From a virus (taxonomy: Duplodnaviria; Heunggongvirae; Uroviricota; Caudoviricetes): 64,000 nt of DNA. The position numbers are program-made. This document shows positions 9,001 to 12,000 of this stretch, in pieces. Location: the IMG/VR virus record IMGVR_UViG_2651869782_000025. One strand, given 5' to 3'. Positions within the stretch are counted from its first letter, which is position 1. Every line of letters begins with the position of its first letter.

Positions 9001-12000
9001 GGCGGTGGGATGTCAAAACCGGTTGCCATGCTCCAAAGTGGCCGCAGTGTGGTTGTATTTATGGACCGCAGCGAAAAGTGGCCTGGAGAATCCTTGATGC
9101 CCAATACTTCGGAGTGGCACAACGACGCCGACGCGTGTTTGTTGTCGCAAGCGCTCGAACAGACCTCGATCCCGCAACGGTACTTTTTGAGTTCGAAGGC
9201 GTGCGCCGGGATATTGCGCCGAGCAGAGGCGAGGGGAAGGAAACTACCAGATATACTTCAAACATCGCTATCAGATCTTGCGATGATACAAACATAGTTG
9301 CCATGGCACATGGGCAAGGAGGGGCTGAGATAAAAACCGATAATTCGGCACCAACTTTGACATGTAACCATGAAGCACCAATTGTATTGCTCGGCGACGG
9401 TAGAATGCGCCGTCTTACCCCTATCGAATGTGAAAGGCTACAAGGTTTTCCTGATGGACATACATTGATCCCTACGGAAAAGCGTAAAAAAGTTTCTTCA
9501 GATGAACTGGCATATCTGCGCAATCACTATCCAGATTTAAGCGAAGAAGAGGCCGCGATGCTTGCAGCTGACGGACCGCGTTACAAAGCGATCGGCAATA
9601 GTATGGCGATACCAGTAATGCGCTGGATTGGCGAGCGGATTACCAAGGCTGCATGTCGGCAGAATGAAGGGCGTGAAACAAAAGAGCGAAAAGTTAAACC
9701 AGCGGCAGAATTCGAACGGTCCATATTCAAATGGGCTGGTGGAAAATTTGGTGTTCTGGAACAAATCTTTCGCTATTTGCCAGAAGGGAAGCGCCTGATC
9801 GAACCTTTTGTCGGTGGCGGAGCTGTCTTCACGAATGCCGGATACCAGGAAAATCTGCTAAATGATGTGAATGCTGACCTGATTAACTTTTACAAGACTC
9901 TGCAACGCGAGGCGCATTCACTTATCACACTGGCGCATCGGTTTTTCCAGGACTACAACACACAGGAAGGATACCTGGCAGTACGGAATGCGTTTAACAA
10001 ACAAGTCTATGATGATTTACATCGCGCAGCGGCGTTTTTGTTCCTGAACCGACATTGTTTTAACGGATTGACGCGTTACAACCAGGCCGGTGAATTCAAT
10101 GTCGGTTATGGGAAGTATAAAACTCCGTATTTCCCATTACAGGAGATGGAAGCCTTCCTCGGTGCGGAAGGGCGTTCTGAGTTTGTATGTGGTGATTGAA
10201 GCTGCCGGAGAAGGAGATGTCATTTTTTGCGATCCGCCATATGAACCGCTTCCAAATACAGAGGGATTCACGAACTATTCCGGTCATGACTTTAAGTTTG
10301 AAGAGCAAAAACGCCTGGTGTCTCTGTTGACGGATGCTCATCGCCGAGGTGCAAAGGTTCTCATTACTAACAGTGGCGCGCCAAACATCAGAGAGCTTTA
10401 TCATGACAGTGGCTTCAGAGTGGAACCTCTCTTTGCCAGACGTTCTGTGTCTTGTAAGGGGGACACTCGAGGTGTAGCTCATGACGTTTTAGGTATATTG
10501 CTCTAATAAATTTATTAGTGTAATATCGCTTCAATGAATCGTTATTTATAGAGCGATTTAGCTGTTAGCCGCGACAGGCGCGGCGGTAAGCATGGCTGGG
10601 CCTAGTCCTCCCAGACAAACCACCGAGTTGCCAGGTTGACCATGCGCCTAAGTGGTAACACCGAAGTGCGTTACGAGCTTCCAGTTTGCCCATCTTCGGG
10701 TGGGCGTTTTTTTCAGGGTTTTCGTCATGGTTAGCGACTTTGCGGCGGTTTAGAAACTGACCATTAAAGTAAATGCAAACGATGATCTGATGATGGTAGC
10801 GGCCTAAGAAGCCAGACGCCACGGGGTATGAGTCGTCCCCCGTCAAAAAATCGACCGCAGAGTGTCCCCGTCTGTGTATTAGGGAACGGGGAGGCATAAC
10901 AAGGTAAGGGCGCTGGTTCGATTAACCAGATGAGCGAGAAGGGGCCATCTTTTGGTCAGTGCCCTTACCTGTTACGTCCTTTTTCATTCAGCGTAACAGC
11001 CATTGCTTAATGGCATCCTGGGAGAATTTCTTGTAACGGGTATATCCCGTCATGCTGAAGGCGCTAATCACGCTGGAAGCCAGGGTTGTGCATCCCCTGT
11101 TACCGAATTGCAGCCAGGGCGCGGTGCGCCGAAAAGCATACGGAGGTGGAAGCCCTCGCCGGAGACGTACCCGGCAAGTGATGGTGTAGCTCAGCGGTTA
11201 GAGCGGTTGACTGTTAATCAACGGGTCGATGGTTCAAATCCATCCACCATCGCCAATGCCGGTTTAGCTCAGTTGGTAGAGCGCCTGCCTTGTAAGCAGG
11301 ATGTCAGCGGTTCGAGTCCGTTAATCGGCACCAGCACAACAGGTAAGGGTATTTTGCGACGTCGGAGATCGCCGAGCTTGGCAGAGGGTTCGAATCCCTA
11401 CGAAGTACCCTTACCGTTGTGAGGAAGCGCAGCTCTTTGAAGCAACCAGAAGATAAGCATCTGGCTTCACAACATAAACCGCAGGAACGACCAATAAACG
11501 GTAGTCCGTATGGAGAACACCCCGTTGAGGAAGAGGCCTGGCCGGAACCGTAACCGGCACTATAACGTTGAGAACACTGGCGTAACGGGGTCATATCCCA
11601 ATCTACGAATAAATGTTGCGTTGCAGCGTGACAACCAGTGTTCTCAACATTGTGGTGAAAGCGCGTTGCTGGCGCGCAAGTCCGCCCTATGGCAACGAGG
11701 CGGCGTAGTAAATATCGATGCCTTAGTCATCAAGCGCACTGACCGGCCTTATGGGCTATGAACAAAAAGAGGCGCAGTCGGAGATCAGCACCGACCACCA
11801 CAATCACTGGAGAGTAGGGAGCATGGTGCTCAAGCGGTCTTGAAATCCGTCCCGTCGCGCAAGCGATGATGGTTCGATTCCATTACTCTCCGCCAGCGCA
11901 ACGTTAAGAGTATTTGGCTAATTAAGCGAATGCCGGAAGCAGAACCGGATCACCAAATGCGTACAGGCGTCATCGCCGCCCAGCCAGCCAAATGCTCTTA

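Follow-up and report, generated by a model that had tools for sequence, protein, structure and literature searches.

A candidate tmRNA-derived RNA module with an antisense domain against host tmRNA in the proposed leader of the ban operon of P1-like phages

Organization of the dmt-trnA interval

The stretch of DNA analyzed here, hereafter the window, comprises 64,000 nucleotides (nt) of a virus of the class Caudoviricetes (IMG/VR record IMGVR_UViG_2651869782_000025). Its segment 10400-11400 shares 95-97% identity with the phages P1, SJ46, and P7 and with further punaviruses. Between the methyltransferase gene dmt and the gene for tRNA-Asn, this segment contains an element, designated module 2 (10718-10895), which has a reading frame similar to the tag template of transfer-messenger RNA (tmRNA) and a domain complementary to the tmRNA of the host. 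It is proposed that positions 10507-11180 are the untranslated 5' leader of the ban operon, which is repressed by C1, and that this leader is a chain of separately conserved RNA modules. Under this proposal, module 1 (10569-10713) is a small RNA (sRNA) cassette of the DicF type, and module 2 is derived from tmRNA, combining an antisense 5' domain with an mRNA-like part and lacking a tRNA-like domain. The probability of this joint model is estimated to be roughly 0.55.

The P1 coordinates were carried to the window through an alignment of the window, P1, and P7. In the P1 record, the counterpart DNA is situated between dmt and trnA and includes the operator Oban (formerly Op72ab) and the promoters P1ban and P2ban, followed 3' of the leader by tRNA-Asn, tRNA-Thr, tciABC, tRNA-Ile, and ban. 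According to the record of P7, the tRNAs and ban are under the control of the same operator. In the window, the bivalent C1 operator Oban corresponds to 10497-10524, with no strand assigned to the whole. Oban-a (10497-10513, plus strand) is a perfect match to the consensus ATTGCTCTAATAAATTT, and Oban-b (10508-10524, minus strand) is a second, inverted operator. Oban overlaps the stop codon of dmt (10504-10506). The sigma-70 promoter P1ban, also from the P1 annotation, is located at 10498-10526 on the plus strand, with the -35 box TTGCTC at 10498-10503 and the -10 box TAATAT at 10521-10526. This part is 95% identical to P1, and the transcription start is expected at approximately 10533. P1ban was not flagged by a generic consensus promoter scan of the window. 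Downstream of the leader and in the same orientation, ARAGORN recognized tRNA-Asn(GUU) at 11180-11255 and tRNA-Thr(UGU) at 11258-11333 on the plus strand, with Rfam tRNA scores of 74.5 and 72.9 bits.

An earlier note on the window, made from the sequence alone, described the interval as a structured region poor in open reading frames (ORFs) with candidate non-coding RNAs. All the sequence features that it listed are present, shifted by at most 1 nt. The region directly 3' of the C1-controlled ban promoter and operator is indeed non-coding, its only ORF of at least 60 amino acids (aa) being one of 110 aa on the minus strand. The note held a retron to be unlikely, and no sign of a retron was found. 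Its "several further stem-loops" exist as structures, although they are not generic; they correspond to the conserved, putatively tmRNA-derived RNA at 10718-10895 and to a modular hairpin at 10897-10974. Folding of the single sequence is exceptional only for this long hairpin, and the other segments show z-scores from -2.1 to +0.3. The evidence for a functional RNA region is comparative, namely conservation across hundreds of phages, the compensatory changes that preserve its helices, and a frame that is invariably 10 codons long. An Rfam scan, which the note had proposed, returned the tRNAs, STnc100, and sub-threshold tmRNA models, with no DicF and no family for the hairpins. The covariation analysis, likewise proposed there, revealed compensatory changes across phages in the helices of module 2, while the support for the leader of module 1 is modest and limited.

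Tag reading frame and distribution of module 2

Module 2 was first recognized as a weak match of 25.7 bits to the Rfam model tmRNA_permuted, carried by the unpaired, tag-coding columns. Five homologues score 22.5-33.4 bits with the same model, and the alpha_tmRNA and beta_tmRNA models give 14-22 bits.

The tag frame occupies 10775-10807 on the plus strand. It begins with the resume codon GCA at 10775-10777, encodes the ten residues ANDDLMMVAA, and ends with UAA at 10805-10807, reading AAAU GCA AAC GAU GAU CUG AUG AUG GUA GCG GCC UAA; the SsrA tag of the host is ANDENYALAA. The frame contains no in-frame ATG, GTG, or TTG start, and a TGA is found five codons upstream. Experiments have shown that A86 and U85 of tmRNA set the reading frame (PMC2481249). 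Positions 10769-10777 of the window are GUAAAU followed by GCA, with U at -5 and A at -4, as are U85 and A86 of tmRNA. The A at -4 was fixed by the search pattern, and the U at -5 and the GCA frame were not.

In 128/128 copies, exactly 10 codons run from GCA to UAA or UAG. These copies encode 16 different tags of the form AN(D/E)(D/E/N)xx(L/M)x(A/V)A (a single one has P as its last residue), such as ANDDLMMVAA, ANDDVVLMAA, ANEEMYLAVA, and ANDEQFLAVA. Synonymous variants are observed within the peptides. Codons 5-8 are heavily diverged among the copies, and the length of the frame is kept. The divergent copy from the Serratia phage KNP4, outside the motif search, encodes ANDNAYLMVA. An ATG in the +1 frame (AAATGCAAACG...) was considered as the start of a small ORF and rejected, as the length and the sequence of its product vary (MQTMI*, MQTMMLF*, MQTKKCIWP*).

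With 10706-10900 as the query, a distant BLAST search matched 333 GenBank phage records from at least five phage groups. Besides P1-like phages, module 2 was found from lambdoid prophages downstream of Q, T1-like Drexlerviridae, N4-like Gamaleyavirus, and the genera Kuttervirus, Taipeivirus, and Miltonvirus of Ackermannviridae, often beside tRNA genes. Among the matches listed, the feature annotated under the match is either none or a "hypothetical protein", and no RNA label is seen in the records examined. More than 120 IMG/VR contigs contain the motif according to a motif scan. Within the P1 family, module 2 is 97.7-99.4% identical, compared with approximately 87% for the neighboring spacer. 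The module is present in 671 of the 5426 complete Escherichia coli genomes, mostly in P1-like plasmids. Its exact motif occurs in only 4 species representatives of GTDB, and module 2 is thus essentially phage-borne. The exact motif was also seen in a metagenome-assembled genome labelled Bacillota (JAFAFU010000017.1, locus L247), which probably includes a mis-binned enterobacterial phage contig.

Structure and boundaries of module 2

Downstream of the tag codons, three structural elements resembling those of tmRNA were recognized on the plus strand. A two-part stem-loop at 10793-10822, similar to helix 5 of tmRNA, places the stop codon in its apical loop. RNAfold predicts this stem-loop for most of 45 sequence variants, with stem sequences that differ between lineages. 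The Rfam consensus structure of E. coli tmRNA shows the same layout, with the stop codon in the loop of helix 5.

Pseudoknot 2 (PK2; 10821-10855) is formed by ACGGGG 10821-10826 with CCCCGU 10838-10843, and by the loop GUCG 10832-10835 with CGAC 10852-10855. In the PK2 hairpin, analyzed with RNAalifold, two pairs are changed on both sides in 10 of the 24 sequences. The loop pairing occurs in four covarying versions at the same positions: CCGA:UCGG, CCAG:CUGG, CCAA:UUGG, and GUCG:CGAC. Pseudoknot 3 (PK3; 10857-10893) consists of stem 1, GCAGA 10857-10861 with UCUGU 10871-10875, and stem 2, UCCCCG 10865-10870 with CGGGGA 10888-10893. The pairs of PK3 stem 1 are 99.6% canonical, double changes are observed at 5/5 pairs, and none of 500 shuffles reached this level. 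For this stem the sequences were aligned by fixed flanking anchors only, with no fitting to structure, and a script did the counting. PK3 stem 2 is found in more than eight covarying versions, 4-9 base pairs (bp) long. A test of the longest pairing run, own against cross combinations, gave no discrimination at stems of 4 bp.

An H-type pseudoknot similar to pseudoknot 1 (PK1) of tmRNA is possible through GUUUUC:GAAAC and CUUUGCGG:CCACAAAG. The N4-like copies need a register shift for this pairing, and RNAalifold did not predict it. The nucleotides involved are the same as those of the antisense domain described below.

Whatever the context, module 2 starts at GUUUUCG. Its end comes after PK3, and in some cases a protein gene follows immediately. 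What precedes it differs: a terminator in P1, a hairpin strand in the lambdoid and N4-like contexts, and an unrelated hairpin in Kuttervirus. The constancy of both ends in varied contexts indicates an autonomous unit of approximately 175-185 nt. In the T1-like phage Sf11, a TTGACA-17-TAGATT promoter lies directly upstream, so that module 2 can be a transcription unit of its own.

A tRNA-like domain, that is, a 7-bp acceptor stem with G3-U70, a T-arm, and a 3' ACCA, is found neither in module 2 nor in its flanks, and ARAGORN detected no tmRNA in the window or in 14 related loci. Several candidates for this domain were rejected. The "tRNA-Ala(CGC)" called in an N4-like phage has U-A at 3:70 and no CCA, STnc100 forms a closed stem and not an acceptor end, and the hairpins with a T-arm near the module have no G3-U70 and mostly no CCA. 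Pairing of hairpin strands upstream and downstream of the module (the B and A strands of the A-B hairpins described later), as an analogue of helix 2, was also discarded, because one or both strands are missing in T1-like, P1-like, and other contexts.

Complementarity to host tmRNA

The first part of module 2, GUUUUCGUCAUGGUUAGCGACUUUGCGGCGGUUUAGAA at 10718-10755 on the plus strand, is nearly the reverse complement of nt 64-105 of E. coli tmRNA. This target covers the 3' half of PK1, the upstream determinant region, the resume codon, and tag codons 1-5. It is identical in E. coli and Klebsiella pneumoniae, and has one extra A in Salmonella. In the layout predicted by RNAduplex, GUUUUCGUC..GUU.GCGAC.UUUGCGG.UUUUUAGAA lies on tmRNA nt 64-105, CUCGUAAAAAGCCGCAAAAAAUAGUC followed by GCAAACGACGAAAACU. 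On the host side, pairing is predicted for G87-C91 (the triplet at -1 together with bases one and two of the resume codon), for codons 3-5 of the tag, and for the 3' strands of PK1, while A82-A86 would be bulged out of the duplex.

The predicted energy of the duplex between the window domain and tmRNA 64-105 is -36.9 kcal/mol, a value reached by 1% of shuffles. Eight diverse homologues give -31 to -39 kcal/mol, always at the same tmRNA site, and 0-1.5% of their shuffles are as good. A local alignment to the reverse-complemented tmRNA includes a 3-nt insertion and a 5-nt deletion, and the lambdoid copy matches 33/35 positions. Variants with a long linker reach alignment scores of 27-34, or 5-7 standard deviations above the shuffle mean (17, standard deviation approximately 2). 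The GCGAC core has the variants GCGGC, GCGAU, and GUGGC, and all of them still pair with GUCGC of the host through G-U.

The complementarity to the host is greater than that to the module itself. For 86/86 unique modules, the host duplex (mean -34.3 kcal/mol) is better than pairing with the module's own tag region (mean -17.4 kcal/mol), whose codons 3-5 differ from GAC GAA AAC of the host. Judged from these comparisons, module 2 has an extended and conserved complementarity to one tmRNA site, which is above self-pairing and above chance, with only the alignment scores of the short-linker variants at the level of shuffles.

Proposed function of module 2 and alternative explanations

The RNA of module 2 may pair with the host tmRNA and block, or replace, its tag template. 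Transcripts reading through the terminator would release an RNA of approximately 180 nt, which would anneal to the host tmRNA and occlude the resume codon of the host. Since the helix is antiparallel, the phage tag template would leave the duplex at the end nearest to helix 2 and the tRNA-like domain of the host. The phage resume codon would be approximately 19 nt from that end of the duplex; the resume codon of the host is 11 nt from PK1. A complex of alanyl-tmRNA and SmpB could then resume on the phage template and append its tag, in effect as a chimeric tmRNA in two pieces. Rescued proteins would receive ANDDLMMVAA and other phage tags instead of ANDENYALAA. This replacement of the tag by a parasitic cassette is a tentative reading, considered somewhat less probable than even odds. 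A switch by strand exchange, in which pairing would unmask the phage resume codon, was also considered, and simple cofold output gives support neither for nor against it.

Several points weigh against the model of a tmRNA-derived module acting on the host tmRNA. What is proposed for expression, processing, and interaction is drawn from the analysis of sequences. In P1-like phages, a strong terminator is located directly upstream, so the expression of module 2 there would need read-through; the same is true for the tRNAs and ban, which are annotated as driven by the same promoter. All Rfam tmRNA scores are below the gathering threshold of 47 bits, and the sense similarity to tmRNA extends over 11-13 nt only, which is not significant alone. 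The sequences for PK2 and PK3 stem 2 were located by complementarity, and their 100% pairing is partly by construction. The alignment scores of the short-linker T1-like and N4-like copies against the reverse-complemented tmRNA are 20-24, inside the range of shuffles. The complementarity GCGG:CCGC is also expected from homology to the 5' strand of stem 2 of tmRNA PK1. When module 2 is cofolded with the full-length tmRNA, the same intermolecular helix persists, at a net gain of 4-9 kcal/mol, but nt 64-78 are held in PK1 in the native molecule, and the folding programs used here ignore PK1 and thereby overestimate the accessibility of the target. To our knowledge, there is no precedent for a tag template given to the ribosome in trans. 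Finally, plain inhibition explains the antisense domain equally well.

Such an inhibitor, or decoy, would mask the resume codon, might invite cleavage by RNase III, and would block tagging or rescue, and the tmRNA-like 3' part would be untranslated and serve for stability or for binding to SmpB, S1, or the ribosome. The antisense match is statistically the strongest feature of the module, and pairing around the resume codon is known to abolish the function of tmRNA (PMC2481249). A precedent is the phage RNA of the DS6A type, which consists of the tRNA-like domain (TLD) only and was reported to inhibit tmRNA and interfere with host trans-translation (PMC4131195, PMC11915505). A decoy, however, needs no exact frame of 10 codons, and this frame is retained in all 128 copies despite the divergence in codons 5-8. 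Nor does it need the conserved AN(D/E) start, the hydrophobic-Ala-Ala end, the synonymous changes, the stop codon in the loop, or U and A at -5 and -4. That module 2 is an inhibitor and nothing else is thus regarded as rather unlikely. The origin of the complementarity could also be common descent, if the phage encodes a self-sufficient two-piece tmRNA whose acceptor piece is located elsewhere, for example in the T-arm insert at 11334-11420. Hairpins bearing a T-arm adjoin the tag module in several lineages, the hairpin 3' strand of some contigs ends with ...UGCUCUU-U-CCA directly before GUUUUCG, and the best Rfam matches are the permuted, two-piece tmRNA models. Yet no partner is common to all contexts: T1-like phages have a promoter before the module, P1 has a terminator, and other contexts have unrelated hairpins, and a protein gene may follow the module directly. 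The features of the T-arm hairpins given above, the different insert of P7, and the absence of ARAGORN tmRNA calls also speak against an acceptor piece, and descent does not explain why the match to the complement of the host is far above that to the own tag region. A self-sufficient phage tmRNA is accordingly judged to be quite improbable.

The remaining explanations deny module 2 a function as an RNA of its own. The whole region could be only a 5' untranslated region or processing spacer, a recombination mosaic of dicF-locus, ssrA-derived, and hairpin sequences with the terminator as an attenuator. The modular mosaic layout, the frequent exchange of inserts, and the unremarkable z-scores of most segments would fit, and the separate RNAs are known from sequence only. 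This is also improbable, only a little less so than the self-sufficient tmRNA: module 2 is more conserved than the neighboring spacer in the P1 family, unrelated phages, both virulent and temperate, maintain it with its frame intact and with compensatory changes, and T1-like phages provide it with a promoter of its own. A degraded or small protein gene, an alternative already raised in the earlier note, would be the minus-strand ORF of 110 aa at 10565-10897. The ORF does exist in the window, and records of the SJ46 type annotate hypothetical proteins here. Despite 98-99% identity of the DNA, however, a frameshift disrupts this ORF in P1 and several stops do so in P7. It also extends over three RNA modules that are independently mobile, and the conservation follows the helices and the plus-strand tag frame. 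A protein gene at this place is hardly credible.

Relationship to known RNAs

The tmRNA (RF00023) and the two-piece tmRNAs (RF01849-51, RF04321) share with module 2 the resume codon GCA with A at -4 and U at -5, a ten-codon AND...(V/A)A tag close to ANDENYALAA, a stop codon in the loop of helix 5, and H-type pseudoknots after the tag. As in two-piece tmRNAs, the function of module 2 would depend on pairing of two RNA molecules. Module 2 differs in that the acceptor stem, the T-arm, the CCA end, and G3-U70 are all missing, which makes charging impossible. Two downstream pseudoknots are present instead of three, its equivalent of PK1 is doubtful, and it adds the antisense domain. Its scores are 22-33 bits against the threshold of 47, and it is encoded by phages, next to tRNA genes.

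Phage tmRNAs have been described from mycobacteriophages and the Bacillus phage G, and the 2025 tmRNA database counts 79 phage sequences. The TLD-only RNA of DS6A and the full-length tmRNAs of the Bxz1 group and Bacillus phage G are, like module 2 in the proposed model, phage-borne derivatives of tmRNA. The DS6A RNA retains the tRNA-like domain alone, while module 2 would be its mirror image, comprising the mRNA-like and pseudoknot part plus the antisense domain, and is found in phages of another host group, Enterobacterales. The anti-sRNAs AgvB and AsxR from prophages of enterohemorrhagic E. coli, and other phage antisense RNAs, reportedly pair with a host non-coding RNA and not with an mRNA. 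In the case of module 2, the target would be tmRNA, the duplex would be much longer than theirs, at approximately 35 bp with a 5-nt bulge, and the antisense RNA would also carry a replacement coding template.

A full-text literature search for ban-leader RNA, tmRNA-like phage RNA, antisense RNA against tmRNA, and the tag peptides returned nothing relevant, and the loci may figure among the 79 database entries. In the literature searched, neither a phage RNA pairing with tmRNA nor a tag template without a tRNA-like domain is described. Nearly every bacterium has a tmRNA, and several phages require it or are restricted by it. If the pairing is true, it would be a new route of phage control over ribosome rescue and proteolysis. 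If tags are replaced, module 2 and the host tmRNA would constitute a natural inter-genomic two-piece tmRNA, by which viruses reprogram protein quality control, and this would be a categorically new mechanism. It would bear on the origin of two-piece tmRNAs and offer a natural tool for re-tagging proteins. The coordinates and motifs given here allow annotation of an element that the records examined either leave blank or mis-annotate as hypothetical proteins.

DicF-like organization of module 1

The P1 record includes a misc_feature, "dicF-like region", in the dmt-trnA stretch, which maps to approximately 10621-10722 of the window. Module 1 is composed of a conserved leader element (10569-10663) and an sRNA body with an intrinsic terminator (10664-10713), both on the plus strand. 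The leader element shows approximately 77% identity to the segment just upstream of dicF in Qin-type prophages. A distant BLAST search matched it in 4057 of the 5426 complete E. coli genomes, at unannotated chromosomal sites. In a K-12-like and an O-antigen-typed strain, the match is flanked by ydfC (or its equivalents) on one side and dicB on the other, which places it in the dicBF operon of Qin-type prophages. At the Qin locus, Rfam DicF (76.7 bits) follows approximately 25 nt downstream of the leader match, and STnc100 comes next.

In the window, the position of DicF is filled by an unrelated sequence, ...ACCGAAGUGCGUUACGAGCUUCCAGUUU, followed by the terminator. The Rfam DicF model (RF00039, gathering threshold 48 bits) had no match in the window, either in the 4 kb searched at E<=1 or in the 721 nt searched at E<=10. 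The body is 98% identical in P1 and P7. A terminator scan placed the terminator stem at 10687-10706 (GCCCAUC-UUCG-GGUGGGC) and the U-run at 10707-10713. The earlier note had recognized this terminator downstream of the perfect C1 operator, and the hairpin with its run of 7 T is present, approximately 180 nt past the expected start of P1ban. The region contains 2 overlapping terminator sites against 2.2 expected from shuffles, which is not above chance, and the significance of the terminator therefore rests on its conservation. The small C1-controlled transcript postulated in the note is plausible as a unit and agrees with both the "dicF-like region" of P1 and the dicF-like organization. Transcription of the ban operon, with its tRNAs, tciABC, and ban, must pass through this terminator.

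A pattern scan found the leader motif in more than 120 IMG/VR contigs. The leader of approximately 95 nt is nearly constant, and it is followed by at least 6 different sRNA bodies, each with its own terminator (loci L131-L244). Both the canonical DicF and the P1 type are among these bodies. The arrangement suggests a cassette system that swaps sRNA "payloads" in lambdoid prophages. The support for a structure of the leader is modest, as the pairs proposed by RNAalifold are mostly invariant or show only G-C/G-U changes. A long-range helix occurs as GUAUGG/CCAUAC and GCAUGG/CCAUGC, with a U-G intermediate, and an inner hairpin is compensatory in P7 (CUGGG/CCCAG versus CGGGG/CCCCG).

Upon derepression, module 1 would yield a short RNA with a primary transcript of approximately 180 nt, probably trimmed to approximately 50 nt by analogy with DicF. 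By the available comparisons, module 1 is built and placed like DicF but does not belong to the DicF family by sequence. The architecture of the dicF locus is present, with the upstream leader, a body position of approximately 50 nt, the Rho-independent terminator, and a downstream STnc100-like sequence (12005-12125 in the window). Both loci are prophage-borne and controlled by a repressor, P1 C1 for the promoter of module 1, in contrast to DicA/DicC for that of Qin. In the P1-like locus, moreover, the sRNA is separated from the STnc100-like element by tRNA genes and module 2. The body has no similarity to DicF, so the targets probably differ and sharing of the DicF targets ftsZ, xylR, and pykA is not expected. 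That the P1 locus is "dicF-like" was thus already known; what is new is that the leader carries interchangeable bodies and that the P1 body is not DicF. The label covers a cassette with an exchangeable sRNA body, and the modules together would explain the content of the long ban leader of P1.

The STnc100-like match at 12005-12125 is sub-threshold (37.8 bits against 47) and extends the synteny with the dicBF operon, the same family being found after dicF in Qin (L003 3171-3380). STnc100-like sequences (GGUGAAUGCGG...) also follow hairpin modules in T1-like and lambdoid loci, which suggests that this element is another module of the same arrays.

A-B hairpins and the spacer preceding the tRNA genes

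Module 2 is followed by a long hairpin at 10897-10974 on the plus strand, with the 5' strand UAACAAGGUAAGGGC, the 3' strand GCCCUUACCUGUUA, and one bulged A (z = -6.0). The stem GGTAAGGGC...GCCCTTACC, which the earlier note had pointed out, is contained in it at 10903-10911 and 10961-10969 as part of a 15-bp helix. In spite of 12-14% divergence, P1 and P7 both preserve this helix. The insert of the hairpin is specific to the P1 family and holds the T-arm-like GGTTCGATTAACC of the note. This T-arm-like motif is not conserved: it is GGTGTGATTAACC in P1 and P7, where TTCG is replaced by TGTG. The corresponding T-arm candidate at 10915-10927 reads GGUGUGAUUAACC in both phages and does not form a conserved UUCRANY T-loop on a 5-bp stem. 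Neither ARAGORN nor Rfam detected a tRNA at 10896-10975, including this candidate.

Hairpins of this kind, designated A-B hairpins, were found from P1-like, lambdoid, T1-like, and N4-like phages, where their stems bracket variable inserts and separate the modules and the tRNAs. The stems covary, with versions such as GGUAAGAGCA/UGCUCUUUCC, AAUGAGAGCA/UGCUCUCAUU, AAUGAGUACA/UGUACUCUUU, and GGUAAGGGC/GCCCUUACC in the window, and the 3' strand holds a boxA-like GCUCUUU. Long hairpins between the functional RNAs of one transcript occur in the T7 early RNA, the T4 tRNA cluster, and the phi80 M3 RNA, and the A-B hairpins, which are long, imperfect helices predicted from sequence, are similar to them. 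They differ from the hairpins that serve RNase III/RNase P processing of phage RNAs in the variable inserts (T-arm, hammerhead-like, and others) enclosed by the stems and in the boxA-like GCUCUUU at the 3' side. The simplest guess is that the A-B hairpins are processing signals, which is also the most likely one.

A second A-B hairpin is located at 11334-11420 on the plus strand (z = -4.5). Its insert includes a canonical T-arm, GGGUUCGAAUCCC, and a 4-5-bp hairpin with the loop CGUCGGAGA. This tRNA-like type of insert is also present in other loci (L015, L034, L056, L072), including lambdoid contigs, where various covarying stems enclose it. In P7, the stem of the second hairpin holds another insert. 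In another IMG/VR contig (L104), the A-B insert 3' of the tag module, GCGCGCCTGACGAGTCCATGAGGGACGAAACGC...GTC, resembles the core of a hammerhead ribozyme (CUGANGA...GAAA).

The spacer at 10976-11179 on the plus strand, between the first A-B hairpin and tRNA-Asn, was found only from 20 P1-like records. It is variable at 10976-11040, while the 139 nt at 11041-11179 are near-identical to P1 and P7, with one substitution each. The boundary at 11041 is sharp; the preceding 145 nt are only approximately 85% identical and include indels, and no structure or database match explains it. The spacer has no Rfam match and no exceptional fold (z = +0.3 and -0.8), and it is probably the leader of the tRNAs.

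Other features of the locus and of related loci

Further downstream, ARAGORN called tRNA-Ser(UGA) at 11809-11895, which is also called in P7 (L002 3383-3469) and not in P1; the Rfam tRNA-Sec model gives a sub-threshold score of 42 bits. The P1 record annotates the minus-strand ORFs plp and upl across this stretch, which looks non-coding. Upstream of the leader, dmt is represented by two overlapping ORFs in the window (8502-10199 and 10090-10506), compared with a single coding sequence of 2265 nt in P1, and this suggests a frameshift, a pseudogene, or a sequencing error in the methyltransferase gene.

The Salmonella phage SenASZ3 (Kuttervirus, L008 850-3070) has a stretch of more than 2 kb without an annotated gene, which includes the tag module and three elements with a T-loop. 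These elements were not called by ARAGORN, and two of them are followed by an acceptor-like strand and CCA. The stretch looks like a large array of unannotated tRNA-like RNAs.

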